A stretch of DNA of 64,000 nucleotides from Candidatus Margulisiibacteriota bacterium (GCA_034723395.1 JAYEOW010000029.1:32001-96000), one strand, 5' to 3'; numbered from the stretch's first letter, positions 30,997 through 60,474 are shown. A program made the numbers and translations. Notes: a model not told the origin generated them from the sequence alone.

Positions 30997-31024
30997 TGAA
31001 ATTTTTGAGGGGGGACGACGATGA
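30997..31024 (+). promoter_or_regulatory. Conserved motif copy 1 (sigma28-like promoter)
   Basis: TGAAATTT-N14-CGATGA. Confidence 0.65.
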
Positions 31025-31081
31025 TAATGTGATGTGGGAAGTAGTGCTGGCCGGGAAATTAAGTTGAATGGGGATAAATTT

Positions 31082-31327
31082 ATGACAAAAATTAGAATCA
31101 TCCAGCCCTATGACCAGGTCTCGTTTGGCCGATTTGTAGTTAATAAGCGTGACATGCAAAGACGCAGCCTGCTTGTCGAAAACCTTAATCCTGTATTTTC
31201 TTATTTTCGCAAGAACACGCCTAAAATTTTTGAGAAAGATTACTTCACTGGTTATTTCTTGGAAAATCTGAATAAAACAGGAAAAAAACATTTCGAAACT
31301 GGTGAGCCCCTTAGCCGAGCACTTTGA
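31082..31327 (+). CDS. Short orphan ORF, possibly the detached N-terminus of the downstream RelA/SpoT-like gene
   Basis: Follows the conserved promoter motif; see the frameshift finding. Confidence 0.45.
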   Translation: MTKIRIIQPYDQVSFGRFVVNKRDMQRRSLLVENLNPVFSYFRKNTPKIFEKDYFTGYFLENLNKTGKKHFETGEPLSRAL

Positions 31328-31418
31328 CCAGCGCTGGGGTTGGGGAAAAATGGACAAACTGCTCAGCGTTCTTAATTAAGCTTGCTGCGAGGAAGAAGAG
31401 AAGATTGAGCTTGTCTTA

Positions 31419-33662
31419 GTGGGTTCACCGGGATTACCCAACTCCAAAATCAAGATACTGCCTCGGCAATGTTCAGTAGATAAGGATGATAATTTTGACT
31501 TTATAGGTCTTGCACAAAATCCTGCGTGGCTTAGGATAGCGCTTGATAGTTCCAGAATAGAACTGAATACGGTTTATACTGAAAGCGAGCTCTATCAAAT
31601 CGCGGTTGAGGAATTCGGTGAAGTCAGCCGCGAGGCGGTGGCGAGCCTTTTTATTCAGCAATATCCCTCCTTTGTCCAGCTCATGCGCCCTCGTTGCCGT
31701 GAGCACGAAGAACGCCTTTTTGTTCGCAGAGGGCGCCAACCATACTCCAATATACGGTTCGTGAACCCTCGTTGCCATGAGCACGAAGAACGTCCTGTTG
31801 TTCGCAGAGGGGGCCAGCCAAAAACTGTGCCGGTGTTTTTGCTGGAAGGCCCCGAATTTTTTTATTTCGGAAGTGAACCCGAAAGTGAACTATATACCCT
31901 GGCTTTAAAAAAAGAGATAAAAGAGATCGTAAAAGAAGGGCGGGCAGTTCCGGTTTATTTTCAAAAAAATCGAGCGGCCTATTTTACTCCTGACGCTCTG
32001 GCGCAATGGCTAGAGGCAGGAGACATTTTAGAGGTGGAAGAAAACAACGCCCTGAAATACGTTTTTACGCAAAAGTCCGGAGTTTTCTTTGCTGGCGGCA
32101 AAGCAAAAATACGCCGCAAATCTATGCCCGCGGCTAGTGAGGCCCTCCTTAGTTTTTTAAGAAACAAGCAGCTTTCCAGGCGGGAAAGACTTTCTTTCCC
32201 GCTGCTTGCGGAAGCCATCCAGGCTTTAGCTTCTTCTCCCCAGGGTACTGATCCATATTTTGAGGCGGCGCGCATCGCAGCCGAACATGGCGCGTCAGAA
32301 ACAAGCCTAGCTGCGCTTCTTCTGCAGAAGATTTTACCAGAATATACCAGCCCCAGCTATGATTGGTTATTAAATAAAAGGGGTCTACCGACTACGTTTA
32401 TACAGCATCTCAAAGCTGTCCACGGAGAAACCGGATTTTCGTGGAGGAGATGGCCCCTTGAAGTGCGCCTACTGGGAGGTAAAGTTGCCGACATTCGACA
32501 TGTCTCTGGTATGCATGTGGGCTTGATGCGCATCCAGAATGCCGGAGACATACATACTTATTTGCAGCTTTTTCTTAATGTTCTTGGTTTTGATTCTAGT
32601 TATAAGCAAGAGACCTACCTCGAATACTTTGCCACTGTTTTGGGAAAACTCCGGCATACGCCGGTGCGAGCCCTTAAAAAAGAAGAGGAAAGAAATCTAA
32701 GGGTTGTAGTAGCTCCCCTGGCGGAAAGACGTGGTTTTTCTGGTTTAGCGGCGATGATCCGTAATGAAATATTCCGTATTTCTTACAACCGCGCCTACAA
32801 TCATTTTCGAAGAAAAATTGAAAAAGCGACCGGCTTAACTTATTCAGAGATGGAGCTACACCTGCAAGATACAGTAAACCTAATTCGCGAAGTGATTGCT
32901 GCGGCAGGCATTGCGCCTGAAGACTATGAGATCTTCTTTCGGGTTAAACTCCCTTATTCAGCATGGGAGAAGATGCAAGCTAATAAGATCAGTGATCCTG
33001 GTCAAGTTCATGATCTCTTAGGGATGAGTATCGTGGCTGAAAATGACCGTTTGGTCCGCCGCATTGAGAAATTGATCCCTCAGGTGCTTCCAAACCTCTC
33101 ACTTGAAAATTTTAAGGACCCTCACGAACTTTTGCCGCACATGCGTGAAAATCGTCTGCCAACATATAAGGATCAGATTGCTAAACCCGCGGACAGCGGC
33201 TTCTCAGCGATAACCATGATACGTTTGACTATGCTAAAGTTGCCAGCGGAAGTTCAAGTCACAAGTCGAGAGCGTGACAGGATAAATCGCGAGGGTGTTG
33301 CCGCGCACTGGAAGCATAAGATACGCAGGGAGATCAAACATTTTTACGGGATTGAAATTGCTGAACTTGCGGATCTCGTGGAACACAAAGATAAGTTTAG
33401 CGTGGTCCTTTATGGGGATTGGAAAGGGAATATTAGGAAAACCCTTAACCAGGGCCTGGATTACAAGGTGTTTGATAATTTGCAAGAAAAGGATGTGGCG
33501 GAGTTTCTGGATTACAATCCCCATGATAAGCTATTTTATCTAGACCATTGGAAATTTAGGCGTTTGGGAAGAATCCGCCGTGTCTCCGCGCTTGAGCCTC
33601 TCCAGACTGAAGGGGACCATTCTATGACCTATCTCTTTTTAGTGCTCAGGGATAAAAAATAA
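31419..33662 (+). CDS. Divergent RelA/SpoT-homolog domain protein with an unknown N-terminal region
   Basis: APLAERRG, RVKLPYSAWEKM, HDLLG, IAKPADSGF, EVQV and GVAAHWKHK motifs. True start uncertain. Confidence 0.8.
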   Translation: MGSPGLPNSKIKILPRQCSVDKDDNFDFIGLAQNPAWLRIALDSSRIELNTVYTESELYQIAVEEFGEVSREAVASLFIQQYPSFVQLMRPRCREHEERLFVRRGRQPYSNIRFVNPRCHEHEERPVVRRGGQPKTVPVFLLEGPEFFYFGSEPESELYTLALKKEIKEIVKEGRAVPVYFQKNRAAYFTPDALAQWLEAGDILEVEENNALKYVFTQKSGVFFAGGKAKIRRKSMPAASEALLSFLRNKQLSRRERLSFPLLAEAIQALASSPQGTDPYFEAARIAAEHGASETSLAALLLQKILPEYTSPSYDWLLNKRGLPTTFIQHLKAVHGETGFSWRRWPLEVRLLGGKVADIRHVSGMHVGLMRIQNAGDIHTYLQLFLNVLGFDSSYKQETYLEYFATVLGKLRHTPVRALKKEEERNLRVVVAPLAERRGFSGLAAMIRNEIFRISYNRAYNHFRRKIEKATGLTYSEMELHLQDTVNLIREVIAAAGIAPEDYEIFFRVKLPYSAWEKMQANKISDPGQVHDLLGMSIVAENDRLVRRIEKLIPQVLPNLSLENFKDPHELLPHMRENRLPTYKDQIAKPADSGFSAITMIRLTMLKLPAEVQVTSRERDRINREGVAAHWKHKIRREIKHFYGIEIAELADLVEHKDKFSVVLYGDWKGNIRKTLNQGLDYKVFDNLQEKDVAEFLDYNPHDKLFYLDHWKFRRLGRIRRVSALEPLQTEGDHSMTYLFLVLRDKK
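31688..31820 (+). repeat. Imperfect direct repeat, 2 x 55 bp with a 78-bp period, in frame
   Basis: CCCTCGTTGCC(G/A)TGAGCACGAAGAACG...TTGTTCGCAGAGGG at 31688 and 31766. Confidence 0.9.
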
Positions 33663-33782
33663 ACTCATTTTATAACAATCTTTACCATGCTTTGATTTTA
33701 GCATAATATTCGTTTATAATAATGTTTCTTAATGCGATTCGCGAAATCCCAAAGAAGATTGTAAAAGGAAGGTATAGCTGTA

Positions 33783-35645
33783 ATGAAAATGTTAAAAGAA
33801 AAATGTGGGGCAGAAAATTATAAAAAGCTGGAGGCGCTGGGCAATCCGGCCTTGCTTGAATTTGTGGCAAAATATGTGGAACATTGCAATCCCGCGTCGG
33901 TTTTTGTGCGTACCGATTCTCCGGAGGATGCGGAATACATTAGGAATAAAGCGATCGAGAACAAAGAAGAACATAAACTGGCTATTAAAGGCCATACTTA
34001 TCACTTTGACGGATATTTTGACCAGGCCAGGGATAAGGCGAATACAAAATATCTGCTCCCTCCGGACGTAGAGCTGGGTTCTGATATCCGGAAAACAGAC
34101 CGGACTAAAGGTTTGCAGGAGATTAGCGGACTTCTAAAGAACATTATGTCCGGCAAAGAGATGTATGTCGGCTTCTTTTGTCTGGGTCCGACAAATTCCC
34201 CTTTTTCGATCCCCGCGCTCCAGATAACCGATTCGGCTTATGTGGCGCATAGTGAGGATATCCTTATCCGAAGCGGGTACGAGATGTTTAAAAAACTGGG
34301 GAAGACGGCCGATTTTTTCAAGTTTGTTCACAGCGCTGGAGAGCTCGAAGGCGGCGTGAGTAAAAATGTTGATAAACGCAGGGTTTATATTGACCTTGAG
34401 CAGAATTTGGTTTTCAGTGCCAATACCCAGTATGCCGGTAATACTGTTGGCTTAAAGAAGTTGGCCATGCGCCTGGCTATAAAAAAGGCCTCCTTTGAAG
34501 GGTGGCTTACCGAGCATATGTTTGTTATGGGGGTCCATGGCCCAAAGGGGAGGGTCTCTTATTTATCCGGTTCATTTCCGAGCGCCTGCGGAAAAACGTC
34601 TACCGCGATGCTGGAAGGCGAAACGATCGTCGGGGATGATATCGCCTATTTAAGGAATATTGACGGCAAAATTCGCGCGGTAAATGTTGAGCGCGGGATG
34701 TTCGGCATTATCCGTGACGTGAATAAAAAAGGAGATCCATTGATCTTTGAAGCGCTTAATTCTACTGGAGAAGTGATCTTTTCTAACATCCTGGTAGCTG
34801 ATAAGGGGATCCCTTTTTGGCTTGGGGATGGCAGGGAGATGCCTGAAAAGGGTAAAAATTACTCCGGCGAATGGACGATCGGAAAAAAGGACGCAAAAGG
34901 GCAGGAGATAACCCACTCGCATAAGAACTCAAGATATACCATCCGTTTGAGTGAATTAAAAAATTGCGACCCTAAGCTTAATGACCCCGAAGGGGTGGAA
35001 CTGTCCGGTATTATTTACGGTGGCAGGGATTCAGATACTACTGTACCGGTCGAGCAATCATTTGATTGGAACCATGGGATATTGATGAAGGGGGCAACGA
35101 TCGAATCGGAGACCACCGCCGCCACCCTGGGACAGGAAGGGGTAAGGAAGTTCAATCTCATGGCCAATATAGATTTCCTCTCGATCCCGATGGGGAGGTA
35201 TATTACTAATAATTGTGATCTGGGCAACTCGGTGAAAAAACCACCCCAGATTTTTTTGGTTAACTATTTCCTAAAAGATAAAGATGGTAAATATTTGAAC
35301 GGGGTAAAGGATAAGCATGTCTGGCTTAGATGGATGGAGCTGCGCATTCACGGTGATGTTTCGGCGATCAAGACCCCCACCGGTTATATTCCGGAGTATA
35401 AAGACCTTAAAAAAATATTTGAAGAGGTACTTGATAAAGAATACTCAAAAGAGGAATACCTTAAACAGTTTACTATAAGAATTCCTGAGAACCTTGCTAA
35501 GATAAAAAGAATTGCCGAGATCTATAAGACCAAAGTTCCCGATGCTCCGCATATCCTGTTCGAAGCGCTAGAAGAGCAAAAAAATAGGCTAGAGGAAACC
35601 AGGAAAAAATTGGGAGATTATATATCTCCTGAGGCTTTGGGTTAA
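33783..35645 (+). CDS. pckG: Phosphoenolpyruvate carboxykinase (GTP)
   Basis: YAGNTVGLKK, WLTEHM, FPSACGKTS, VGDDIA and YGGRD motifs. Confidence 0.95.
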   Translation: MKMLKEKCGAENYKKLEALGNPALLEFVAKYVEHCNPASVFVRTDSPEDAEYIRNKAIENKEEHKLAIKGHTYHFDGYFDQARDKANTKYLLPPDVELGSDIRKTDRTKGLQEISGLLKNIMSGKEMYVGFFCLGPTNSPFSIPALQITDSAYVAHSEDILIRSGYEMFKKLGKTADFFKFVHSAGELEGGVSKNVDKRRVYIDLEQNLVFSANTQYAGNTVGLKKLAMRLAIKKASFEGWLTEHMFVMGVHGPKGRVSYLSGSFPSACGKTSTAMLEGETIVGDDIAYLRNIDGKIRAVNVERGMFGIIRDVNKKGDPLIFEALNSTGEVIFSNILVADKGIPFWLGDGREMPEKGKNYSGEWTIGKKDAKGQEITHSHKNSRYTIRLSELKNCDPKLNDPEGVELSGIIYGGRDSDTTVPVEQSFDWNHGILMKGATIESETTAATLGQEGVRKFNLMANIDFLSIPMGRYITNNCDLGNSVKKPPQIFLVNYFLKDKDGKYLNGVKDKHVWLRWMELRIHGDVSAIKTPTGYIPEYKDLKKIFEEVLDKEYSKEEYLKQFTIRIPENLAKIKRIAEIYKTKVPDAPHILFEALEEQKNRLEETRKKLGDYISPEALG

Positions 35646-35705
35646 AATAATTTGCCAATACTTTTTATAGTAAGTTTCACTGTTTTATAGTATAATAATT
35701 TTACC

Positions 35706-36773
35706 ATGAAAATTCGTTCGAATACACGTGAAGGGAACAAGATTATCCTCGAAGTTGAAGAAGATTATTCAGAATTCCTCAAATCGGTCGATAAAACTAT
35801 CATTGAAGCGGGGAAAGAGGTTAAAATTCCCGGTTTCCGCCCCGGTAAAGCCCCCAAAGCGATGGTTGAAAAGGTGTTAAACCGCGAATTTATTGAAGCG
35901 CAGGCAGCTCAGGACCTTATCTCCGCAATTTATCCAAGAATCCTTGATGAGATAAAAATTGAACCGGTTGATTATCCTAATCTTCAAATTCTTGATAAAA
36001 AGAAGAAGAAACCAATCGTTTATAAGATCGAGATCGAGGTTTACCCGGAGGTAAAACTCGGTAAATATAAGGGTTTGAGGGCTGAGAAAAAAGAGGTAAA
36101 AGTTACTGATGAAGATGTGAATAAAGTCTTGGAAAACCTCCAAAAAAGGCTGGCCCATATGGAAGGGGGCGAGCCGGCGATCGATGATGAATTTGCTAAA
36201 AAAGTGAGCAAGTATCAGACCCTTGAAGAGCTAAAAAAAGAGTTTCGAACGGGGATGCAAAAAGATAAAGAGGGCGCCGAAGAGGCTGACGTAAAGAATA
36301 AGCTTATCGCAGAAGCCTCGAAAAATGCAAAAGTGGATATTCCCAACGGGATGGTCAAGCGGGAGATCGATGTAATGCTTGATGAGCTGCGCAACTCACT
36401 TGCTCAAAGCGGCTTGACCCTTGAAGATTATTTAAAAGGGATAAAAAAGGACGAGAAGCTGATGCGGGAAGAGCTGCACAAATCGGCCGAAGTAAGGGTG
36501 ATCGGTAAAGTCGTTTTAAAGGCGATCGCGGAAACTGAAAAAATTGAGATCTCAAAAGAGGAGATGGATGAGGAGCTCAAAGAGCTGGCAAAGGCGGCCG
36601 GGCAGCCGGTCGAAGAGGCGGGTAAAGAGATCGATGAGCACGCTAAAAAATATGTCGAAGACTATCTCATGCGCCGTAAAGCGCTAGATTTTATTCTAGA
36701 AAAAGCAAAGGTAACAACGGTTGAAAACAAGCCCCTCGATGAAACTCGGGGCGAGGAGGAAAAAAATGACTGA
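35706..36773 (+). CDS. tig: Trigger factor, short form apparently lacking the FKBP domain
   Basis: [10 protein letters not shown] ribosome-binding motif, DDEFAK, C-terminal domain; upstream of clpP. Confidence 0.92.
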
Positions 36774-37389: not shown

Positions 37390-37392
37390 TAT

Positions 37393-39816: not shown

Positions 39817-39834
39817 TAATAGGAGGAGATCAGG

Positions 39835-41959: not shown

Positions 41960-42018
41960 TTTAAAAGTGAGGTTTGGATGTCCGCTTTTACAGGACTAGG
42001 GCATAACCTAAAATAAAT

Positions 42019-44261: not shown

Positions 44262-45064
44262 AGAAGTATCTTGCCTTTTTCCTGTTTTTGTTCTTTGTTT
44301 TATCAATTCCTTCATCCGCGAAGTTTAATTATTTCCCGGTATTGGAATATCACCTGATCAGCCGTCCAGAGGCGCGTTGGAGCCGGTCGCCGGACAACTT
44401 TCGCAAAGATCTCGAATGGCTACATCAAAACAATTACTATCCAATGAACGTAAAAGATATTCTGACCAACTTTAAAGGGTTGCCTAAAGGAAAAAAACCG
44501 GTAGTTCTCACTTTTGACGACTCATCTTCCAGCCAGTTTCGTTATCTAAAGGATGGATCGATCGATCCAAATTGTGCGGTCGGGATTATGAAGGCTTTTT
44601 GCGATAAACATCCGGGCGAATGGCCGATGCGGGCGACCTTTTTTGTGCTGATCGAGACCAACAATCCGGACCGTGATCTTTTTGGCCAGAAAAAATATGC
44701 AAAGAAGAAGTTAAAAGAATTAATCGAGTGGGGGATGGAGGTTGGTGGGCACTGTTATTCGCACGAGCGGTTGAGTGATATCAGCACAAAAGCGGCGAAG
44801 TATGCTTTGGCGCGTTCATCGTATTATTTGGAGAAGATAACCGGACAGAAAATTGTCAGCATGGCGACGCCGATGGGGCTTTATCCAGAGGACGATTCGA
44901 TTTTTTCGGGAAGATACCAAAAGATCAAATATGATTATAAACTGGTTTGTGAAGTAGCGGGCGGATTCCAGGTCGTTCCCTGGTCAAAGAAGTTCAATCC
45001 CCGGCATATTAATCGGATTCAAACGATTTCTTCGGAATGGAAGAAATGGTTTGAGCGGGACTAA
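44258..45064 (+). CDS. Secreted polysaccharide deacetylase (CE4/NodB-like)
   Basis: Signal peptide; VLEYH, VLTFDDS and GHCYSH motifs. Confidence 0.85.
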   Translation: MKKYLAFFLFLFFVLSIPSSAKFNYFPVLEYHLISRPEARWSRSPDNFRKDLEWLHQNNYYPMNVKDILTNFKGLPKGKKPVVLTFDDSSSSQFRYLKDGSIDPNCAVGIMKAFCDKHPGEWPMRATFFVLIETNNPDRDLFGQKKYAKKKLKELIEWGMEVGGHCYSHERLSDISTKAAKYALARSSYYLEKITGQKIVSMATPMGLYPEDDSIFSGRYQKIKYDYKLVCEVAGGFQVVPWSKKFNPRHINRIQTISSEWKKWFERD

Positions 45065-46020
45065 AACCGATACTGTGTTAAGGCCCTAGCCCCGCTTTTA
45101 TTAATGATTTTATGTTTTATTCCGAAGAGAAGGTCCCGACTGGCGGTTGCGGTCGAGATATCTTTGTGGAAAGCCAGGTAGTCTTTTCTGGAAAAAAGCT
45201 TCTTTTGAAAATGGTCCCTGACCGACCTTAACCTGGTTTTTGCCGTCTGGACCTGCGGCCTAATATTGACCAAGAGCTTGCTAACCGCCTGTAAAATAAC
45301 TTTTAACATAAACTCAATGAACCGGGTCGAGTTCCCGGCTTTATCCGCTTCCGCCAGGGATCTATAATATTCTTTTTGTTTTTCGCGGATGATTGATTCG
45401 ACCGGGATATATTCAAAAAGCGGGTGGTATTTGCGTAAAATAACGGTTTGCCAAAGGCGGCCCATTCGCCCGTTGCCATCTGAAAAAGGGTGGATAAATT
45501 CAAGTTCATAATGGAAAACGCTCGATTTTATCAGGGGATTTAAATTGTCTTTTCTTTTTAAGAAATTAAAAAGCTTGCCCATTAATTTTGGGACCAGTTG
45601 ATGCTTGGGGGCCATATGGGCAACTTTTGTCCCTTGAAAAATCCCGACGTTCCTGGAGCGCAGGAAACCCGCGTCTTCGGCCAGGCTGTTCAGTAGCGTT
45701 TGATGAGCTTTAAGTAAAGAATCAAGCCGATTAACCTTATAGCTATGGATTAAATCGTAGGCCATGATGGCATTTTTTACCTCGAGAATGTCTTTTTGTG
45801 GGCCGATCACCCGCTTGTGGTTTACCAGGTCTGTTACCTGTTGTTCGGTTAGCTGGTTTCCTTCAATTGCCAGTGATGAAAAAATTGTTTTTATCCGGTT
45901 TTTTTTGCGCAGCTGCGGTTGAGGGATCGGGCCCTTTAATCCTTCGAACCGGCCCAGGAGGCGGTTGATCTCCGCGCAGAGGTTTAGGCTTCCAGCGGTA
46001 ATTTTGAAAGGTGGATACAT
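45061..46020 (-). CDS. Fic family protein (class II) with a C-terminal HTH
   Basis: SLAIEGN, HPFSDGNGRMGR, C-terminal ISTATASRDL. Confidence 0.92.
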   Translation of the reverse strand: MYPPFKITAGSLNLCAEINRLLGRFEGLKGPIPQPQLRKKNRIKTIFSSLAIEGNQLTEQQVTDLVNHKRVIGPQKDILEVKNAIMAYDLIHSYKVNRLDSLLKAHQTLLNSLAEDAGFLRSRNVGIFQGTKVAHMAPKHQLVPKLMGKLFNFLKRKDNLNPLIKSSVFHYELEFIHPFSDGNGRMGRLWQTVILRKYHPLFEYIPVESIIREKQKEYYRSLAEADKAGNSTRFIEFMLKVILQAVSKLLVNIRPQVQTAKTRLRSVRDHFQKKLFSRKDYLAFHKDISTATASRDLLFGIKHKIINKSGARALTQYRF

Positions 46021-46281: not shown

Positions 46282-47484
46282 GTGAATATTCGCTATATTA
46301 TATGCTCATTAATGGTTTTGTTTGTGATTGCCGGCTCATCCTTTTCTGCTACAACCTCTGTCGATCCTCTCCGGATTGGTGTCGGCGCCCGCTCGCTGGC
46401 TATGGGACGGACCAATCTAGTAGCCCCGGGCGATATTAACGCCATCTTTGTTAATCCTGCTAACGCCGCCTATATCGATGGATGGGGATTAACCAGCATG
46501 TACACCTCCCTGATGGATGGAGATATTAACTATACGTTAATGGGTGGGGGAAAGAAGTTTGATTTTGGCGGGATGGGGGTCGCTTACTTGAGCGGTGGAA
46601 CGACCGGGATCTCAGTTACAACCAGAGATGCGAATGGAAGGGTGGTTTCGGCCGGAACAAGCTTTGACTATGCAAATTCGGTGATCGCGTTAAGCTGGGG
46701 TAGGATGCTGCGCGAAAATATTGCCGGCGGCGCTGTCTTAAAATCATTTTCTAAAGGATTTACCGGTGGATATTCATCCGGATCTGGATTTGATCTCGAT
46801 CTTGGGATCCTTTTTAAACCGAGACCAAACCTAACTGCCGGGATCGCGATCCAAAATGTTCTTCCGACCGGTATTTCGTGGAATACGGGGACGAACGAAG
46901 ATGTCCCGATGCTAATTAAGGCAGGATTGACCAGCCGGATAAAAGAGAATATTTTGCTGGCTGCAGATGCAGACCTCTCACCTTTTGCTTTACATAGTGG
47001 GGTGGAGTGGCAATTAAACAGGATGTTTGTCCTGCGCGGCGGATTAGACCAGGTGCCGAGCGGATCTGAGAGCGCTTTAAATCTTGGCGTTGGCGTGGGA
47101 ATAGATTTCCGGCGCTTTAAGTTTGATTACGCTTACTACAAAGATAATACGCTGGATGCGAATTCAACCCATTATTTTACCTTGGGATTTGCCGCTCCAC
47201 AATTTGGGAAGAAAACGAAAAAAAACCTTGACTCCGCTCGGGGGAACCAAGCCCGGGGCAAAGAAGTGAAGAAAAAACTCCCTCCGCCGCCAATTAAAAA
47301 AGTTCCTGAGCCGACGCCGAAACCGCGAATTAAGTCGGTTAAAGAGAAAAAGATCGAGGCTTATATCGATCTTTTAGAAAATAAACTGAGAAGCGCAAAA
47401 AAACCCGCTCGCAGAGTAAAACTAAAATCAATGATCGACCAGCAGAAAGCCCGTCTTGAACAGGTTACTTCAAATACTCCCTAA
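46282..47484 (+). CDS. PorV/PorQ (FadL-like) outer-membrane beta-barrel with a Lys/Pro-rich C-terminal extension
   Basis: Signal peptide; [22 protein letters not shown] and FDYAY motifs. TTGCCA-N16-TATAAT lies upstream of the GTG at 46282. Confidence 0.8.
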
Positions 47485-48520
47485 GTTTTCGGGCCCGGGT
47501 CGGATGTTTTAATTTCCGCAGCGCTTTGGCTTCGATCTGGCGGATTCGTTCACGTGTAACATTGAATACCCGCCCTACCTCTTCTAACGTCCGCGGATGG
47601 CCGTCGTCCAGGCCAAAACGAAGTTTAAGTACGATCTTTTCGCGCTCAGTAAGGGTGTTCATTACATTTTCAAGATCATCACGCAAAAGCCCTTGCATTA
47701 CGATATCGTCCGGAGCTTGCACGCTCCCATCCTCAACAAAATCGCCCAGACGCGAACTCTCTTCGTCGCCGATCGGCATTTCCAGCGATAGGGGGACCTG
47801 GGAGATCTTGATGATCTCGCGCACCTTTTCTACCGTGATATGTGCTTTCTTGGCAATCTCTTTTTCGGTCGGTTTACGGCCCAATTTTTGCAGCAGCTGG
47901 CGCGAAGTCTTGCGCAGCCGGTTGATGGTCTCGACCATGTGTACCGGGATACGGATCGTGCGCGCCTGGTCGGCAATCGCTCGGGTGATCGCCTGGCGGA
48001 TCCACCAGGTCGCGTAAGTTGAGAACTTGTACCCTTTGCGGTAATCGAATTTCTCAACCGCACGGATCAGGCCAAGATTTCCTTCTTGGACCAGATCGAG
48101 GAAGAGCATTCCGCGGCCGGTATACTTTTTGGCGATCGAGACCACCAATCGCAAATTGGAGTTAACCAGCTTATGTTTGGCGCGGATCTCCATCGCTTTG
48201 ATCTTTTTGGCCAGAACGACCTCTTCTTCTGAGGTTAGAAGCGGGAATTTGCCGATTTCGCGCAGGTACATGCGGACGGTATCATCCACGCCGACCCCTT
48301 TAAGGGCGGCAAGCTCCTTTTTTATCGGTTCGTCTTCTTTATTGTGTTTTACTATCTCCTTTTTTTCGGAGATTTCGATCCCTTTCCCGATCAGTTGCTC
48401 GATCTGGCCGAGATTTTTCTCCGGCTCGGGGATAATCGAAAGGATCTCCTCAGGAGTTAGATAACCCTTGCGGGCTGCGGTTGCTTTTAAGAATTCAAAT
48501 CCATTTCGTTTTGCAATCAT
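47465..48520 (-). CDS. rpoD: Primary sigma factor SigA/RpoD
   Basis: [34 protein letters not shown] and [10 protein letters not shown] motifs; follows dnaG. Confidence 0.97.
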
Positions 48521-48537: not shown

Positions 48538-50289
48538 TTATCGGACATTACTTTGGGCGATTTCACTTTTTAGGGCAGAAAGTAATTGTGAGACTTTTTG
48601 GGTCTCACCTTTTTTTTCTGCCTCCCGGATCTCTGTTTTTAAGATCTCTATTTTGTTTTTTTGCCGCACCCCTTTTATTACGTTTATGCAGTCTTCCATG
48701 ATCTGTTTGTCGTCGCTGCTATGGACCAATCGATCGCTCATTAATATTCCGGATAAGAACTTCCTGGTCCCTTCTTCCGGCAAGTTGTCCAGGATAAAAT
48801 GGGCCGGATTATTGTTTTCTGCTTCCGCAGAAAACATAAGTTCGGCGATCTTTTTTATGTCCGGGATAGAGAAATCGTCCACTTTTAGATGGTCTCTTAA
48901 TGTTTTTAACGATCCAGCATTTTGGGCGGCAATGGCAATGATCGTTTTTTCCGCTTCGTGGACCTTTGAGGCCGGCTTCTCGGTTTTTCTATGCAGCAAC
49001 CCTCTTCCCATCCTTTTATATTGTTTAGATCGCTTGGTTTCAGATAAGATCGTGTCCGTGCTTGTTTTGAGAACAGGAGCGATCAGTTTTGCATACTCTT
49101 TCTGGACAAAGGGATCTTTCTCGGTATTCAGCAAGGCGGAGACTTCTTGGAGTGCCTTTCCTCTCCCTTCGATCTCTTTAAGATTGTGGCGTAACAAGGT
49201 TCGATTGATTTTAAATTCAAGATAGGGGAGGGAAGAATTTAAGCATTGGTCAAATCCTTCCCTTCCCAACTTATTGATTATTTCATCGGGATCTTTTCCG
49301 CCCGAAAGTTTTGCAACCTTTACCTTTAATCCCTGGCCCCTGAGCAGTTCAATCGAACGCTCGGCCGCGATCCCGCCGGCCGCATCGGCGTCGAATCCCA
49401 GTATTACTGTATCGCAGTAGCGCGACAATAACTTGCACTGGTTAACGGTCAATGCTGTCCCCAAGGTGGCGACGATATTCGTGATCCCTGCTTGGAACGG
49501 GGTGATCAGATCAAAGTACCCTTCGACCATCACTGCGGTTTTGCTCTTCTTAATACTATCTTTCGAAAGATCCAAACCAAAAAGAGTTTCTCCTTTGTGA
49601 TAGATCAAGGTGTCGGAGGAATTCATGTACTTGGGCTCTTCATCCCCGAGCGATCTCCCGCCAAAAGCCAAGACCCTTCCGCGCTGGTCGCAGATGGTAA
49701 AGATCAAGCGGTTGCGGAAACGGTCGTAATAACCGCTTTTCCCTTCCCGGGCGAGGATCAAACCGCTCTTTTCGATCAGTTGGGGATCGACTCCGCGCGA
49801 TACCAGATGTTTGAAAAGATTATCCCAGCCGGGCAGGGCAAAACCCAAGCGGAAGGCTTCTTTTGTTTTATCGGTTATCTTTCTCTTCTTTAAATATGCC
49901 AGGGCCTCATCATTTAGATTACTTTGAAAATAATCGGCGGCGAGCTTCATGACCTGATAGAGCTTGTCTTTTTCGCCGCGCGAACGGCCTGCGGTCTTTG
50001 GCTTTGGAACATCTATCCCAACTTTTATCCCAAGTTCTTCAACTGCTTCGACAAAGCTGATATTTTCGATCTTCATTAAGAAGGCAAACGCGTTGCCCCC
50101 CTCGTTGCAGCCGAAACAATGGAAGATCTGTTTCTCAGGGGATACTGTAAACGAGGCATCCTTTTCCGCGTGAAAAGGGCAGAGACCGAGGTAGTTCTTC
50201 CCCCGCTTTTTTAACTGGACAAATTCGGATATCACTTTTACGATATCCGATTTATTTCTTATCTCTTCAATTATATGAGCTGGAATCAT
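48538..50289 (-). CDS. dnaG: DNA primase
   Basis: CPFH..CFGC zinc finger, EGYFD, FDADAAG and KDPDE motifs. Confidence 0.97.
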
Positions 50290-50292
50290 AGA

Positions 50293-51294: not shown

Positions 51295-53993
<2,699 letters not shown>

Positions 53994-54021
53994 TTTTCCT
54001 TACCTTCCTTTCTTTTTATTG

Positions 54022-54093
54022 TGGAGCTGAGGGGATTTGAACCCCTGACCTCTTGACTGCCAGTCAAGCGTTCTCCCGCTGAACTACAGCCCC
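54022..54093 (-). tRNA. tRNA-Ala(GGC)
   Basis: GGGGCTG...CAGCTCCA with G3:U70; CTTGA-CT-GGC-AG-TCAAG anticodon arm. Confidence 0.95.
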
Positions 54094-54103
54094 ACGGTTT
54101 TGT

Positions 54104-54445: not shown

Positions 54446-55314
54446 GTTTTTGAACCTGCCTTAAAGATTTCGGTCATATTTTTAATCTTATTTAAGTTTG
54501 GTTTTAGATAATAAATCCCATCTACCATCATGTCCGATCCGGGGAGGGTTTTCATTGATATATTTCCGAGCTCTACCGCATCCCTGACTCCCAGACCAAG
54601 TCCGAGAGACTGTCTCGAATTCAGATTAGTATGGAGATAGGAGAGTAGGGTCAAAAACAACTTGGGCGAGCGGAGGATATTGTCCCTTTTTAACATCTCT
54701 TTCGCCATTGACCGTAAGAAATGCTGTTGGCGCCCGATGCGTTTGAAATCCCCCCCATCTTTACGATATCTAAGATAGCCCATAACCTGTTTGCCGGATA
54801 ATCTCTGCTGTCCCGGTTTCAAATCAATGTATAATCCGCCGGCATAATCGACGTAATACATCCGCTTCTCAACATTAACCGGGACTCCGCCCAGGTCGTC
54901 GATAATATTGACGATCCCGGCTAGATCGACCACAATGTGGTAGGGGATTTTGATTTCCAATAGGTTCTCGACAGTTTTTTTAGAGAGCTCTACTCCGCCG
55001 TAGGCATAAGCATGGTTTATTTTATCTAACCCCCGCCCCGGCAGGACGGCAAGCGTATCTCTAGGGATCGAGATCAGGGTCGCTCTTTTGGCTGCCGGAT
55101 CGGAATTTAATACCATGATCGTATCGGAACGGTGTCCATAGGCGCTGTCAACTCCGAGGACTAAAATGTTCGCTTTGGAAAAAGATTGATTTGAGGGGGC
55201 AAGGCTCAAAAAAAGCTCGAACAGGGCCAGTTTTGAGGCGATCGCCATAGTAAAACCGATAACTATTGAGAAGACGATGGTAATTGACAAGCTTATTATT
55301 ACAAATTTCTTCAT
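54442..55314 (-). CDS. LytR-CpsA-Psr (LCP) family protein
   Basis: ILVLGVD, RSDTIM, SIPRDT, KINHAY and RIGRQQ motifs. Confidence 0.93.
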   Translation of the reverse strand: MKKFVIISLSITIVFSIVIGFTMAIASKLALFELFLSLAPSNQSFSKANILVLGVDSAYGHRSDTIMVLNSDPAAKRATLISIPRDTLAVLPGRGLDKINHAYAYGGVELSKKTVENLLEIKIPYHIVVDLAGIVNIIDDLGGVPVNVEKRMYYVDYAGGLYIDLKPGQQRLSGKQVMGYLRYRKDGGDFKRIGRQQHFLRSMAKEMLKRDNILRSPKLFLTLLSYLHTNLNSRQSLGLGLGVRDAVELGNISMKTLPGSDMMVDGIYYLKPNLNKIKNMTEIFKAGSKT

Positions 55315-55874
55315 GTTTTTAGTAAATAATGGTTTCGGGTCTCAACCGTGCCGGGATGGAACGGAAGCCCTTTTTTTAATAAAAAGCTGAGCATTTGTGT
55401 TGATGTCTCAACTACCGCCCGATCAAGGTCTTTAAAGGCCAAGCGCCTGCTTTTATTAACGCCGGGAAGGTTTCGTCCTTCTTCGATGTGGTCGGCGAGG
55501 TAGATGATCTTCTCAATTTTGCTCATCCCCGGAGCGCCGATCGTGTGCCTCCTTATCGCATCAAGGATATCTCTTGACCTTACCCCAAAATCTTTTTTTG
55601 CCAAACGCGCGCTCAGTTCGGCGTGCAGGAGCTTTGGCTCGAATCGGCTGATCGGGTCGATCTTCATTTTAAACCGGCGTGCTTCCTTTAACATTCCGCT
55701 TCTTGAAAATTTTCGGGCGTAATCGTGTAAAAGGGCGGCCAAACTAGCTTTTTGGATGGAGACTTTATGGCGTTTAGCAAGTGCAACGGCAGTTTTTTCT
55801 ACCCTTAAACTATGTTCAAATCTATCCCGCGCAAGCGCTTCCCTTAGTTTGTTAATTATTTCTGGTTTTTTCAC
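55311..55874 (-). CDS. yqeK: YqeK HD-domain Ap4A hydrolase
   Basis: RFEHSLRV, LLHDYA, AIRRHT and YLADHIE motifs; yqeK-LCP-rsfS synteny. Confidence 0.9.
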   Translation of the reverse strand: MKKPEIINKLREALARDRFEHSLRVEKTAVALAKRHKVSIQKASLAALLHDYARKFSRSGMLKEARRFKMKIDPISRFEPKLLHAELSARLAKKDFGVRSRDILDAIRRHTIGAPGMSKIEKIIYLADHIEEGRNLPGVNKSRRLAFKDLDRAVVETSTQMLSFLLKKGLPFHPGTVETRNHYLLKT

Positions 55875-55942
55875 AAAAAATAAACCAAGACTAGCGCCCT
55901 GGCAAGGTTGATATTATAACAGCTTTAAAGATTATCTGTCAA
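55875..55942 (-). promoter_or_regulatory. Consensus sigma70 promoter followed by a short terminator-like leader
   Basis: TTGACA-N18-TATAAT (55942-55913), then CCAGGGC-GCTA-GTCTTGG + TTTATTTTTT directly before the yqeK GTG. Confidence 0.6.
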
Positions 55943-56017
55943 TCCCTCACCCCCTTTTTCCCCCTAGAGGGATGTTGAAGAAACGTAATCATTATGTAAT
56001 AATTGGGTGAGGGCAAA

Positions 56018-56758
56018 ATGAACGATTTAGCAGTTATTATATTAGCAGCTGGTAAGGGGTCACGGATGAGATCGGACCTCCCAAAGGTGTTCCATGAGAT
56101 ACTGGGAGAGCCGATGCTTACCTATACCCTGGAATCGGTAAAAAAGCTCTCTCCGCAGCGGACGTTATTGGTGGTTGGCCATAAGCGGGAGCTGATTATG
56201 GATTATTATAAGGATTGGGAGCTAAAATTCGTCGTTCAGGATGAGCAATTGGGTACCGGACACGCGGTTATGCAGGCGAAGCCGTTCCTGGACGATTTTG
56301 ATGGGAGAGTCCTGATCGTAAACGGCGATGTTCCTTTGATCACTGATGTCACCCTCCGAAAACTGGTCGATTTTCATATCGAAAACAAGGCGGCGGCGAC
56401 CGATCTTACCGCGGTTTTGGATGATGCCGGAAATTACGGGCGAATTGTTCGAAAAGAGAATGGGGAGGTTGTTAAGATCGTTGAAAAAAAGGATGCCTCG
56501 CCCGAAGAGTTAAAGATCAACGAGATCAATACGGGCACTTTCTGTTTTAATAAAAAGGCTTTATATCTCGCTTTGGCTGAAGTCCGCGCCGAAAACGCGC
56601 AAAAAGAGTATTATTTAACCGATACGATCGAAATTTTACAGAAGAAGAACCTTCCGGTTTATGCGTTCCGTGCGGATGATCCAAATGAGACTTTGGGAGT
56701 TAATACCAAAGAAGAATTAGTTGGGATCGAAAAGATCCTTTTAAGCCGCGAAACGTAA
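56018..56758 (+). CDS. GlmU-like nucleotidyltransferase, N-terminal domain only
   Basis: LAAGKGSRM..LPK, QLGTGHAV, YGRIVR, EYYLTD and GVN motifs; no hexapeptide-repeat domain. Confidence 0.9.
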   Translation: MNDLAVIILAAGKGSRMRSDLPKVFHEILGEPMLTYTLESVKKLSPQRTLLVVGHKRELIMDYYKDWELKFVVQDEQLGTGHAVMQAKPFLDDFDGRVLIVNGDVPLITDVTLRKLVDFHIENKAAATDLTAVLDDAGNYGRIVRKENGEVVKIVEKKDASPEELKINEINTGTFCFNKKALYLALAEVRAENAQKEYYLTDTIEILQKKNLPVYAFRADDPNETLGVNTKEELVGIEKILLSRET

Positions 56759-56771
56759 TTTCCCCAAAAGC

Positions 56772-56799
56772 TGAAATTTTTTCCTGAACTTTCCGAAAG
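56772..56799 (+). promoter_or_regulatory. Conserved motif copy 2 (sigma28-like promoter)
   Basis: TGAAATTT-N14-CGAAAG, ending 9 nt before the ATG at 56809. Confidence 0.6.
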
Positions 56800-56808
56800 T
56801 TATTTGCC

Positions 56809-59800
56809 ATGTCACGTATAACAAAAAACAATGGTGGAAGAGCTGTGTTTCCTCGGGCAATAGCTCTTCATGCTAGAAGAGGATTGTTTAACGATCCAAC
56901 TGCGCGAAAATTCCTCAAGCCGATCTTAAAATTTTGGAAAACGGGCAGAATGGAGCCTTCCTCAAAAGATCTGTTGGCGGTTGAGCGGGAGGCAATTCTT
57001 ACGGTTGGAGTTGAAGCGGATTTGAGGAATCTGGCAACCTGCCGCCGAAAAGCCTTAGAAGGATTAGGGTCGAAAAACAGAGAAGAGTATATTAACTTAT
57101 TAATTTCCCTTGGCGCGTGTTACAGGAAAGAGGGGGAACTTGAGGATGCACAACGTCTGCTCCAGGGAATCAGCTTAGTAGAGCCGGGGAATTGGTTGGT
57201 AAAAGCAGAGTTGGGAATTGTTTGTGGATTGCGAGGAAAGTTAGAATTATCTGTCCGATATTTTAAAGAAGCAGACTCGGTCCTGGAAGCATATGATCGG
57301 GAATATGAGGTGGAGGTGGCGGAAAGATGGGAGGCAGCCTCTTTTCGAGCGCGTTTTGAGGCCTTACTTGCGATAGAAAATGATAAAGGAATTAGCCAAG
57401 CGCGACTCTCCGACATCCTTGCTCCGGTTTTAACTTTTCCCGAGGGATTGGAACTTAACGGTATCAAACAATTTTTTTACCAAAAGTTTGAGCGTGCATT
57501 TATCGCTTTGCTGCAAAGCAAAGCTCCGTTCGACCTGTTTTTTAACCTGTTTTATCGAGGAATAAAAGGAGAAAAAGATGGGGTGGCCGCAATGGCCTCG
57601 GGAGAGTGGCCGGTCGATGGGAATAGGCTGCTAAAAGAGAGCCAGATGGTTGTGCTTAAGGTGTTGACAAAAAGCGAGAGGGAGATTGATGCGGTCCAGT
57701 TGAAGGATTTATTCGGCGCCGAAAAAGATAGCAAATCGGCGATAACGGTTTATGTTCGGATGAGAGTGCGCGCACTATTAGGAAAGGGGCGGCTAGATGC
57801 CGCTTGTGTGCTTTGGCAGGAAGTCAAAAACAATAAATTGGTTTCTCCCGCCGTGTTGAAGGCCCTCCGTTCCGAATTGAGGGCTGGGGAAAAGAAGCTG
57901 CGGCAGGATGCGGTGATGGACCAGGCTTCGGAATTTCTGCGCCAATTGGAGTTTTTTCAGAAAGCCGGGAATGAAGAGAAACTGCTTAATGAGCATGGGA
58001 AGCTGGCGGACCAAGCTGCTAGATTGTTGGAGGTTGCCGAGGAAGAGACAAAGGATGCGGTAAGAGAAGCGTTGATCGAGTTTGTCGAGTTTAACCTCCG
58101 GACGGCAAAGACTTTGCAGGGAGCGGTCCTATTGGCAGACCGCCTGATCGAATTTGGAGATGAAATTGCGCAAGGAGTTAAAAAGATTTTTAATGAAAAG
58201 CTTAGCCATGATGGATCAAGAAAGCTTTTCATGGCGGGCCTGGCTAGCGCGAAGGTACAGGTGATCTCGCTTGGGACTATGCTGGCAAAGGGCAATATCC
58301 CGGTAGACGTTACATTTAAAGCTGTGAAAATTTCTAAGAAGAAGAGCCTAAAAATTCCCAATAACGCGGAGTTTAACAAAGTAAAAAGGTTCTTTGATTT
58401 CTTTTTTGTCCGTTTTAGAGAGCATCCCAGGATGCGGACAATGGCGGGAAAGATCGATGTCCCTTTTGCCGAGCCGATTAGCATGGAATCTTTCTGGTTT
58501 TGTTTTATGGCCGCTTTTGACAGCAACATCCATGACCGGACCCATACCTTTGAACTGGCGTTAAGGCTGGACCCAAATAATGTTGTTGCCAAAATGGAGA
58601 TAGCGCGCCAATATCTTGCCCTTAAACAGGCCGTCCGCGCTGAGAGGCAGATCGATGAGGTGTTGGAAAAACTTGATCACCCTGCCGGTGTTTTTAAGGC
58701 GCTTACCATTAAGATAATGGCGGTTTGCCAGAAGCTGGCTGCGGCTAATGTCCGGGGTGAGAGATTGGTTGGGATGGTTGGGGAAAATGAAAAGCTTTTT
58801 CAAAGAGCGGAAAGGGAATACGAAAAAATTGCTCCGGAGTTGCGCAGCTCGCCGCTGATTGCGGATGAACTGCGGGGGCTCAACCAGACCCTTGGACAGA
58901 TATATACGATGGCGCGTGATTTTGGTAAGGCAGTGGCCTATTACGACAAGACCTTGGAGAGCCGTCCGGGCGGCAAGGTCTATGAGTTGGCGATGCGGGC
59001 CAAAACCCATTCGCTTTTACTTGAAGGGAAATTTCCGCGGGCGGTCGACTTCTTGTCCCGTCAGATCGCGGAGCTGGCCAAGGACGTGAACCGCCCGATC
59101 CCGGCATCTTTGTATTTTTATTTCGCGGAGGCGATGTTCCATGTAAAATCGCACAAACACGCGCTGACCGCGATCAACCGCGCGCTCGGGATTAAAAAGA
59201 GGCTCGACCTCATACTTGCGAAGGTCCGTATATTGGCGGCGGCAGGGAAAGTTAGACAGGCGGAGATGATGCTTGATCTTTATGCCGGCCAGGATGCTCA
59301 AGAAACCGGCAAAAAGGGGGAAGAAGGTTCCAAATTTCTTAGGGGACTGCGTGCTTTAGCGGACGCGGAGATCTATCTGGCCAAGGATCGTCCGCAAGCG
59401 GCCATTAAAGCGTTTGAACTGGCGATCAAACTTTTTTCCGGTAATTACAATACGGAGTTTAGGGAGATAGAGTCGAGGTACTATCTGGTTAATCTTATTT
59501 CGCGGATGGCTGTGGAGGCCGGGAACCAAGGACTTGTCCGCCGCGCGGTCGAAGAGGGAGAGAAGCTTTTGCGAAAATATCCTTTTTTTCCGCCGGCCCG
59601 TCAAGTTATGGTTGGTCCGCTGATGATCTTCGGTAAAGAGTCGGAGGCGTTGGGGCACATCCAATGGCTGGTAAAGCAATCTGGCCGGGGGGTATCGAGC
59701 GATATCCTGGCAAACTTGATCATCAGCGTATTTTCGGAGAACGAGGCAATACAAGAAAAGGCGATTGCGCTCTTTGTCCAGGTAAGGAAGGATACGGCGG

Positions 59801-59928
59801 ATGAGGCGTTCCCGGGAATTTACAAAGCGGCTAAACAGGCGGTCAGATTAATTGCAGCGGACTGGAGCGAAATGCATGACCGGCGGCTGGACGATGTCCT
59901 GGCGGCGGATACTGCACCCAGGCAATAA
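56809..59928 (+). CDS. Large TPR-containing orphan protein (1039 aa)
   Basis: TPR-like units (LGACYRKEGELEDA, LRLDPNNVVA, LGQIYTMARDFGKAVAYYDKTL). Confidence 0.8.
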   Translation: MSRITKNNGGRAVFPRAIALHARRGLFNDPTARKFLKPILKFWKTGRMEPSSKDLLAVEREAILTVGVEADLRNLATCRRKALEGLGSKNREEYINLLISLGACYRKEGELEDAQRLLQGISLVEPGNWLVKAELGIVCGLRGKLELSVRYFKEADSVLEAYDREYEVEVAERWEAASFRARFEALLAIENDKGISQARLSDILAPVLTFPEGLELNGIKQFFYQKFERAFIALLQSKAPFDLFFNLFYRGIKGEKDGVAAMASGEWPVDGNRLLKESQMVVLKVLTKSEREIDAVQLKDLFGAEKDSKSAITVYVRMRVRALLGKGRLDAACVLWQEVKNNKLVSPAVLKALRSELRAGEKKLRQDAVMDQASEFLRQLEFFQKAGNEEKLLNEHGKLADQAARLLEVAEEETKDAVREALIEFVEFNLRTAKTLQGAVLLADRLIEFGDEIAQGVKKIFNEKLSHDGSRKLFMAGLASAKVQVISLGTMLAKGNIPVDVTFKAVKISKKKSLKIPNNAEFNKVKRFFDFFFVRFREHPRMRTMAGKIDVPFAEPISMESFWFCFMAAFDSNIHDRTHTFELALRLDPNNVVAKMEIARQYLALKQAVRAERQIDEVLEKLDHPAGVFKALTIKIMAVCQKLAAANVRGERLVGMVGENEKLFQRAEREYEKIAPELRSSPLIADELRGLNQTLGQIYTMARDFGKAVAYYDKTLESRPGGKVYELAMRAKTHSLLLEGKFPRAVDFLSRQIAELAKDVNRPIPASLYFYFAEAMFHVKSHKHALTAINRALGIKKRLDLILAKVRILAAAGKVRQAEMMLDLYAGQDAQETGKKGEEGSKFLRGLRALADAEIYLAKDRPQAAIKAFELAIKLFSGNYNTEFREIESRYYLVNLISRMAVEAGNQGLVRRAVEEGEKLLRKYPFFPPARQVMVGPLMIFGKESEALGHIQWLVKQSGRGVSSDILANLIISVFSENEAIQEKAIALFVQVRKDTADEAFPGIYKAAKQAVRLIAADWSEMHDRRLDDVLAADTAPRQ

Positions 59929-59970
59929 AGCGGCTGTTTACCTCGGGGCTCCGCTTATTTTAAAATAAAG

Positions 59971-59998
59971 TGAAATTTCCTGTGAATCAGCCCGATAA
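59971..59998 (+). promoter_or_regulatory. Conserved motif copy 3 (sigma28-like promoter)
   Basis: TGAAATTT-N14-CGATAA (context CCCGATAAT). Confidence 0.7.
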
Positions 59999-60019
59999 TA
60001 ATTTGGAGGCTGTTTAAAT

Positions 60020-60427
60020 ATGAGTGTAGTTAATTTAGCTATAACCGCTACGACTATTCATAGGGCGTTAGCTAAAAGAAAAATGTCTTATCCCTATTCG
60101 TGCCTTTTGAACCATCGTCTTTCGCCGACGATAAGGGCGCTGAAAAAATTGGCCAATATAGATCCGGTAAGATATACTGCCTATCAGGAGATGATTGATT
60201 TTCTGGTCAATATCGCGAAAAGCCAAAAAGTCAAGGTAAAGCTTACCTTGCATATTCCAGGCCTTGCCGCGTTACGGGTAATTGATGTGGAGAGATTGAT
60301 GGAAGATTCGGATGCCCGCAGGGATATTGTTAAACGTTGCTACCTCCCGACCAAAGGGATAATCGATCTCAGACCGCTGATTTTTATCAATAAATTATAC
60401 ACTCCAGGGATCAAGGCCGCGCTTTAA
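60020..60427 (+). CDS. Orphan basic protein (135 aa)
   Basis: GGAGG Shine-Dalgarno; preceded by the conserved motif. Confidence 0.65.
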   Translation: MSVVNLAITATTIHRALAKRKMSYPYSCLLNHRLSPTIRALKKLANIDPVRYTAYQEMIDFLVNIAKSQKVKVKLTLHIPGLAALRVIDVERLMEDSDARRDIVKRCYLPTKGIIDLRPLIFINKLYTPGIKAAL

Positions 60428-60446
60428 ATATATTTGCTATTTTACC

Positions 60447-60474
60447 TGAAATTTTTGTTGTAACCCCACGATGA
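60447..60474 (+). promoter_or_regulatory. Conserved motif copy 4 (sigma28-like promoter)
   Basis: TGAAATTT-N14-CGATGA, ending 7 nt before the ATG at 60482. Confidence 0.7.

Follow-up and report, generated by a model that had tools for sequence, protein, structure and literature searches.

A dispersed class of putative σ28-like promoters in a Saganbacteria genome and the σ factors that may read it

In textbook form, the -35 element of class 3 flagellar promoters, which are read by the sigma (σ) factor σ28, is TAAAGTTT. Elements that resemble promoters of this type occur in a 64,000-nucleotide stretch of DNA from a Candidatus Margulisiibacteriota bacterium (GCA_034723395.1, JAYEOW010000029.1:32001-96000; this whole stretch is referred to as the window, and positions are counted from its first letter). 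The subject of this study is this motif, the genome-wide promoter class to which it appears to belong and the σ factor by which it may be read. The source organism is a Saganbacterium (WOR-1, Margulisiibacteriota); Saganbacteria are an uncultured sister group of the Cyanobacteria, and to our knowledge nothing is known about gene regulation in this group. A literature search found no paper on Saganbacteria promoters, σ factors or flagellar genes.

Several systems described in other bacteria provide points of comparison. Escherichia coli σ28 is reported to require -13C and -12G, i.e., the CG of CGATAA (bioRxiv 10.1101/2020.01.02.893370). In Bdellovibrio bacteriovorus, TTAAG-N16-CCGATA was reported at 92 of 140 mapped attack-phase promoters; FliA-type promoters in this species control many genes that are non-flagellar or uncharacterised according to the same report, and its authors propose a global regulatory role that FliA acquired in the course of evolution (PMC3627812). 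Among the Bacillus subtilis σ factors of the extracytoplasmic function (ECF) group, σW is described as reading tGAAACnTTTt...CGTA promoters and σX as reading a -10 element with CGAC, with a T-tract beside the -35 element; σM and σV belong to the same comparison (PMC5758882). Finally, basal body and type III export genes have been reported to be kept without flagellar motility in Buchnera aphidicola (PMC8109811) and Lysobacter enzymogenes OH11 (PMC7688988), and a changed function of these basal bodies, such as export, was proposed in these reports.

The motif and its distribution

We propose, with a probability of roughly 0.6, that four 28-bp elements in the window represent one promoter class that is read by a σ28-type σ factor and that defines a global regulon, with a σ factor encoded on contig C55 as the likeliest reader. 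Under this proposal, the class, which can be written AAAAAg-TGAAATTT-N14-CGATA(A/T), would be recognized by an alternative σ factor of the σ28 type (FliA/SigD/WhiG) and not by RpoD. Its approximately 115 members would constitute a global regulon, not a flagellar one, and would drive mostly monocistronic, fast-evolving, lineage-specific genes, many of them encoding signalling proteins, as well as rpoD and two other σ factor genes.

The window contains four matches to the strict pattern TGAAATTT-N14-CGA(W)(R)(R) (at 30997, 56772, 59971 and 60447), all of them on the + strand. Dinucleotide shuffles of the window contained a mean of 0.01 matches, and none of 100 shuffles reached four. All four elements that a preliminary description of this DNA had listed were thus recovered, and each lies just 5' of an open reading frame (ORF) on the same strand, as had been stated. 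Because this pattern had been chosen after the fact, it was tested on the whole genome (designated G000; 1.68 Mb in 55 contigs, 97% complete). Genome-wide, the strict pattern identified 25 sites, every one of them 5' of an ORF, and the spacing proved rigid: TGAAA-N17-CGATA occurs at 68 sites, compared with 3 to 13 sites at each of 13 other spacer lengths in the range from 10 to 23. An iterated weight matrix of 45 nt identified 117 sites at a cut-off of 14 bits and 115 sites at 16 bits or more, compared with three and one, respectively, in locally shuffled sequence. The motif is hence both far more frequent than in shuffled sequence and dispersed, as the preliminary description had expected, with sites scattered across about 40 contigs; for 55 of the 117 sites, a second site is found within 3 kb.

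The matrix consensus is AAAAAg-TGAAATTTtt-...AAAA.tT..-CGATA(A/T)ATAt, the short form of the class being TGAAATTT-N14-CGATA(A/T). Within the -10 box CGATA(A/T), the C, G and A are the most informative positions, while T at -7 and the two bases upstream of the box (GC) are not conserved; sequences of the spacer between the two boxes are unrelated from site to site. The structure proposed from the four window elements, a bipartite promoter with a σ28 -10 core (CGATAA/T) and σ28 spacing, therefore holds for the genome-wide class.

The position of the sites relative to genes is also that of promoters. Eighty of the 117 sites lie no more than 60 nt upstream, on the same strand, of a start codon that keeps at least 90% of the called gene, compared with a mean of 5.65 (range 2-11) in 20 random sets of 117 positions. 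The distance d between the last base of the -10 box and the start codon is two-peaked. Forty of 108 sites fall in the range d = 5-12 nt, with maxima at 7 and 10 nt, and among these 40 sites 32 have an ATG start and only three a Shine-Dalgarno (SD)-like sequence; a further 55 sites have d = 13-60 nt, and an SD-like sequence accompanies 42 of them. Transcription is predicted to start probably 7-10 nt after the CGATAA box and, given such a start, about 40 transcripts would be leaderless.

Canonical TTGACN-N16-18-TANAAT sites are separately enriched in the same genome and show flexible spacing (16-18 nt), and two promoter classes therefore coexist. Among 66 such canonical sites, 62 have a downstream ORF, and in 21 of these 62 the start codon follows at d = 5-14 nt. 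Since canonical sites share the two-mode geometry, leaderless mRNAs seem to be a trait of the organism, not of the motif, and the position of the motif is the one expected of a -10 box; leaderless starts appear to be common whatever the promoter class. From these sequence features we infer that the four window elements and the genome-wide class are promoters.

The motif is conserved throughout the class to which the source organism belongs. TGAAAT-N16-CGATA is present in 10-121 copies in all 30 relatives of the same family and order, in which the reversed pattern occurs 0-3 times. In a sample of 100 genomes of the phylum (at least 80% complete; 46 of the same class and 54 of other classes), it occurs in 10-194 copies in 46 of 46 class genomes, 45 of which have at least 28, compared with fewer than 30 copies in 47 of the 54 genomes of other classes; the exceptions among the latter are G047 (83 copies), G071 (79), G085 (47), G070 (37), G086 (34), G064 (32) and G101 (30). 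Conservation is also seen at individual loci. Homologues of a 620-aa protein encoded downstream of the element at 60447 are present in 15 of 54 class genomes (27-51% identity), and the motif lies directly 5' of the homologue in 12 of 17 loci, while two loci have none; in 5 of the 17 loci, the homologue is preceded by an ORF of 130-140 aa that has its own motif and takes the position of a 135-aa orphan found in the window. Similarly, in other families of the class, 4 of 4 rpoD-like loci retain a site before the gene. Spacer sequences diverge while the motif stays before these orthologues of the 620-aa target and of rpoD.

Genes downstream of the motif

Orphan genes are strongly over-represented downstream of the motif, as the preliminary description had suggested. 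At an E-value threshold of 1e-6, 71 of 107 downstream proteins (35 of 54 plus 36 of 53) match no Pfam family, compared with 18 of 112 non-target genes of the same loci (Fisher p = 2e-14). Within the window, 10 of 60 ORFs have no family at E 1e-5, and three of these ten are motif targets. Targets with annotation are mostly regulatory and include two Ser/Thr kinases, a PP2C phosphatase, an adenylate/guanylate cyclase, histidine kinases, CheR, three RelA/SpoT-like proteins (two of them encoded outside the window, where the motif also precedes the gene), rpoD, a 222-aa σ factor and a 777-aa σ-like protein. Other annotated targets are GH16, GH116 and ADP-ribosylglycohydrolase proteins and homologues of PGK, PFK and PGM; the latter three may be extra paralogues, because canonical PFKs encoded elsewhere in the genome carry no motif. 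An earlier claim that the motif is not found before housekeeping genes was wrong, as it precedes rpoD in the window and an rpoD-like gene in 4 of 4 relatives, as well as the PGK, PFK and PGM homologues.

A further claim, i.e., that the N-termini of target proteins are poor in Sec signals, was supported: hydrophobic N-termini resembling Sec or transmembrane segments, as identified by a crude window score, occur in 8 of 102 targets, compared with 391 of 1509 other proteins (p = 9e-6). A common N-terminal leader was sought among the 107 targets, and the best segment was common to only three of them. PADLOC analysis of these 107 targets yielded generic domain matches only, in 10 proteins, and the mean G+C content of targets (0.450) is close to that of other genes (0.449).

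The weight-matrix scan added further sites in the window to the four known ones, the main one being a 36.1-bit site before rpoD (48538..48565, - strand; TGAAATCGCCCAAAGTAATGTCCGATAA) that had previously been overlooked. This site falls at the 3' end of dnaG and is followed by GGAGG and, 18 nt downstream, by the ATG of rpoD (47465..48520, - strand), which encodes the housekeeping σ factor of 351 aa (TIGR02393, 390.7 bits compared with a cut-off of 354; Pfam domains were also identified). Site 1 (30997..31024, + strand; TGAAATTTTTGAGGGGGGACGACGATGA, 25.0 bits) is followed by a GTG 10 nt downstream and by an ATG (MTKIRIIQP) 58 nt downstream. The first gene after it is a small ORF (31034..31327, + strand) that encodes 97 aa from the GTG, or 81 aa from the ATG at 31082, and that matches no Pfam family; the next gene (31419..33662, + strand), which encodes a 747-aa protein with RelA_SpoT as its sole domain (residues 508-635; PF04607, 44.4 bits), is probably co-transcribed from site 1. 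The small ORF and the RelA_SpoT ORF (together 31034-33662) are in different frames, with 91 nt between them. Two proteins with a Fic/DOC domain are encoded in the window (29921-30850 and 45061-46020, both on the - strand); the first also has an HTH_3 domain, and its gene adjoins site 1 on the opposite strand.

Site 2 (56772..56799, + strand; 28.6 bits) lies 10 nt upstream of the ATG of a gene for a 1039-aa protein in which the domain search identified TPR repeats (56809..59928, + strand); as this distance leaves no room for an SD sequence, the mRNA from site 2 is probably leaderless. Site 3 (59971..59998, + strand; 38.9 bits) precedes, by 22 nt and with GGAGG before the ATG, the gene for the 135-aa orphan (60020..60427, + strand), which matches no Pfam family even at E 0.05. 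Site 4 (60447..60474, + strand; 22.2 bits) is located 8 nt upstream of the ATG of the gene for the 620-aa protein (60482..62344, + strand), and its mRNA is probably leaderless because of this short distance; for the protein itself, only weak GNAT and GAF leads were obtained (Acetyltransf_1 at E 0.004; Atlas scores of at most 0.88, which are leads only). Two additional matrix matches are doubtful: a 25.7-bit match inside rpoN (24313..24340, - strand; TGAAAC...CGAAAA), which may have arisen by chance or may act as an internal promoter, and a weak match at 35652..35679 (- strand).

Elsewhere in the genome, consecutive genes that each have their own copy of the motif form islands of monocistronic units (C7:5761-22226 and C19:8434-18363); one such run comprises a 740-aa orphan, PGK, a 474-aa orphan, a 1405-aa PPDK_N protein, a Com-like zinc ribbon protein, a Ser/Thr kinase, a 218-aa orphan and PFK. 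At two contig ends (C2:180 and C44:180, both - strand), an identical 41-bit site is found with an identical downstream leader and an identical TTGACT...TATAAT on the other strand; because all three are identical, these ends suggest a repeated locus that was collapsed or split in assembly.

Candidate σ factors and alternative explanations

Six σ70-family proteins are encoded in the genome (RpoD and the proteins encoded on contigs C53, C31, C33, C55 and C46), in addition to RpoN, the gene for which lies in the window, as does rpoD, which adjoins dnaG. The 246-aa C55 σ factor has FliA_WhiG (TIGR02479) as its best match, and its best relatives among solved structures are WhiG and FliA chains (E 7e-22 to 2e-17), compared with 4e-13 for RpoD. 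Its gene lies within a flagellar operon that opens with a perfect TTGACA-N17-TATAAT and has the order flgF, flgG, flgA, flgH, flgI, a 100-aa ORF, the σ factor gene, flgB, flgC, fliE, fliF ... fliI, and 45 of 46 class genomes encode an orthologue (60-78% identity). The 196-aa C46 σ factor comprises regions 2 and 4 only, i.e., an ECF-like architecture, with a FliA-like region 4; it scores 71.3 bits compared with a cut-off of 42.9 for the σ70-ECF superfamily, and matches FliA models through regions 2 and 4. The C31 σ factor (222 aa) is RpoH/RpoS-like. Two other candidates were rejected as readers, i.e., the classical ECF σ factor encoded on C53, the upstream region of which has a GGAAC...GTCTAA-type site and no matrix match, and the 777-aa σ factor encoded on C33, which has only two full-length orthologues in 100 genomes of the phylum. 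The C33 protein (C33:3291-5624) has an N-terminal extension of about 500 aa that belongs to no known family, followed by RpoD-like regions 2-4, and its own gene, too, follows a copy of the motif, which lies 10 nt upstream of the ATG.

Flagellar genes are located in two regions (C55:175-10789 and C46:20422-29688), which encode FlhA, FlhB, FliP, FliR, FliN, FliM-like, FliK-like, FliE, FliF and FliI proteins as well as FlgB, FlgC, FlgF, FlgG, FlgA, FlgH, FlgI and a short (271-aa) FlgE/F/G-like protein. A flagellar export apparatus is thus encoded, with FliQ and FliO assigned only from small ORFs at the expected positions. A FliA/WhiG-like σ factor and flagellar export genes, for which the preliminary description had proposed a search of the genome, are hence present, the former with a score below the family cut-off. 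Flagellin was not found with the queries used in this genome or in five other Saganbacteria genomes, two of which are single contigs, and the 100-genome sample yielded it in a single genome of the 46 from the class and in 12 of the 54 others. FliG_C and a MotA-type stator were likewise not found in G000, where a single ExbB-like match was obtained, and FlgM was not found there by PF04316, a negative that is weak evidence because FlgM is small and divergent. Judged by gene content, what is encoded looks like a basal body (rods, L/P rings and MS ring) with an export gate, without motor or filament. The only flagellin-like match in the class sample (G019:C4:62270-62632) is a 253-aa frame with a score of 59 bits across positions 1-118 of the profile; this frame may represent a remnant, contamination or a FlgL-like protein. 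Whether expansion of the motif goes with loss of flagellin was also considered, and no simple link was found, as flagellin-less genomes outside the class range from 1 to 83 motif matches.

On this evidence, the C55 σ factor is favoured over the C46 σ factor as reader of the motif, and its candidacy is somewhat better than an even bet. It may have lost its tie to filament synthesis and taken on the role of a general programme switch, by analogy with what has been proposed for FliA in Bdellovibrio. A number of observations weigh against a σ28-type regulon read by C55. The FliA/WhiG score of the C55 σ factor (135.6 bits) is below the family cut-off (189.6 bits), and in an alignment only 3 of 10 residues that contact -10 DNA in E. 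coli σ28 are identical, with one conservative change; WhiG, which shares VKFETYA with the C55 σ factor, also departs from E. coli σ28 at several of these residues. In one class genome (G092, 95% complete), the motif matches 107 times and no C55 orthologue was found, although an assembly gap or missing contig is likely, since this genome lacks flgI but has FlhA. The regulon also has no late flagellar anchor, with neither flagellin (in G000 and the five other Saganbacteria) nor FlgM found, and CheR is the sole late flagellar or chemotaxis gene among the 107 targets. In flagellated relatives outside the class, a σ28-type site is found within 260 nt of only one of nine flagellin genes. Finally, the -35 region, TGAAAT with a T-tract, is no less similar to σW promoters than to TAAA.

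The last of these observations also bears on a realistic, if less likely, alternative, in which the same promoter class is read by the two-domain C46 σ factor instead. Every one of 55 class genomes, G092 among them, has a single-copy orthologue of this σ factor, which passes the cut-off of the σ70-ECF superfamily, and the motif is like the B. subtilis ECF promoters with their T-tract by the -35 element (PMC5758882). In addition, its two-gene operon in G000 is preceded by a weak copy of the motif (TGAAATCCCTAAGCTAGACTATCGAAGA, 13.8 bits, with the ATG 7 nt downstream), which would be typical of ECF autoregulation; this copy is, however, retained in just 5 of 20 relatives. The ECF hallmarks are also lacking, with AAT in place of AAC in the -35 element and CGA in place of CGT in the -10 element, and the -10 box is long (CGATAA/T), in the fashion of σ28. 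Moreover, the C46 σ factor is present phylum-wide (99 of 101 genomes), even in genomes with 1-4 motif matches, and its presence therefore does not track expansion of the motif; three out-of-class genomes without a FliA-like match (G036, G074 and G097) have only 2-4 motif matches, a point in favour of a FliA-like reader that is weak at n = 3.

A different alternative concerns the function of the targets. The preliminary description saw them as compatible with secreted effectors, and under this explanation the products of the regulon would be substrates of a flagellar type III export gate that lacks a filament. The apparent retention of basal body and gate, with no filament, makes such an idea conceivable, as FlhA, FlhB, FliP, FliR, FliI, FliF, FliN, FliM-like, rod, FlgH, FlgI, FlgE-like and FliK-like proteins are all encoded while flagellin, FliG and MotA were not found in the searches described above, and the scarcity of hydrophobic N-termini among targets, two thirds of which are orphans, fits it as well. 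However, depletion of Sec signals fits cytoplasmic proteins equally, an N-terminal segment is common to only 3 of the 107 targets, and many targets are cytoplasmic by function, including rpoD, the two other σ factors, the three RelA/SpoT-like proteins, kinases, PP2C, CheR and the PGK, PFK and PGM homologues. With so many targets that are plainly cytoplasmic regulators, among them also the GAF/GNAT-like protein, the effector reading of the regulon as a whole was not supported, and we regard it as quite improbable. A broader scenario, which we consider speculative and rather unlikely in its entirety, would join both lines: the Saganbacteria flagellum would be reduced to a basal body without filament, FliG and stator but with an export gate, its σ factor would have been re-used as master switch of approximately 100 fast-evolving, lineage-specific genes per genome including rpoD, completion of the basal body or export would control a whole-cell programme, and part of the orphans could exit via the gate.

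That the motif is a variant housekeeping promoter with an 18-bp spacer (nTGAAA ... GATAAT), read by RpoD, is very improbable. While nTGAAA resembles TTGACA, GATAAT resembles TATAAT, and the motif precedes rpoD, PGK and PFK, conservation within the -10 box is strongest at the C and G of CGA and absent from the T at -7, the spacing is rigid compared with a canonical class that tolerates 16-18 nt, and the make-up of the targets is sharply unlike that of neighbouring genes. Least probable of all is a repeat or the promoter of a mobile element, prophage or defence island, as might be suggested by the clustering of 55 of 117 sites within 3 kb of another and by one target with a Mu Com-like zinc ribbon, given that spacers are unrelated, that sites are spread over about 40 contigs and the motif is found in every class genome sampled, and that targets show generic PADLOC matches only (10 of 107) and the same G+C content as other genes.

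Comparison with described systems

If the σ28-type regulon proposed here is correct, one recognisable promoter class would cover roughly 7% of the genes of an organism from a group without cultured members. The motif could be used to improve annotation of start codons, many of which would belong to leaderless transcripts; it would delimit, as a guide to functional study, about 100 orphan genes per genome that are regulated together, and it would support the choice of promoter/σ factor pairs for heterologous tests. The preliminary description called the motif undescribed, which was overstated, as its type is the known σ28 type; the lineage and the size of the regulon are new. New, too, are the scale across the class (roughly 30-190 sites in each genome of 1.1-2.2 Mb), the orphan bias, the wiring of rpoD and the apparent absence of a filament.

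With the σ28 class (FliA, SigD, WhiG), the motif shares a -10 element in which ATAA follows a conserved CG (GCCGATAA-like, CGATAA/T here), a bipartite structure with a rigid spacer and an A-rich (TAAA-like) -35 element in the same register, and a FliA/WhiG-like σ factor gene is located within the flagellar cluster. It differs in that the -35 box is TGAAATTT and not the textbook element, in that there are about 115 promoters instead of a dozen or two, with almost no flagellar or chemotaxis targets (CheR only), in that no flagellin or FlgM was found and in that the σ factor scores below the family cut-off. The B. subtilis promoters read by σW, σX, σM and σV, as described, are alike in the TGAAAT -35 element with its T-tract, in a -10 element that starts with CG and in the register; by contrast, their hallmarks AAC and CGT are AAT and CGA here, and the -10 element of the Saganbacteria motif is longer.

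The retained basal bodies of Buchnera and Lysobacter parallel the apparent gene content of the flagellar clusters; these organisms are, however, Gammaproteobacteria, and the parts of those reports that we draw on describe no link to a σ28 regulon of approximately 100 promoters. The nearest precedent for the system proposed here is FliA of Bdellovibrio, the reported promoters of which have their boxes in the same register as the Saganbacteria motif. Bdellovibrio is flagellated and its transcription starts were mapped, whereas the starts are predicted for the Saganbacteria genome, in which no filament gene was found and which belongs to another phylum. The regulon described here would be a second, independent case, after Bdellovibrio, of a flagellar-type σ factor regulon that has grown into a global programme, in this case in a lineage that has apparently lost the filament and kept the basal body.

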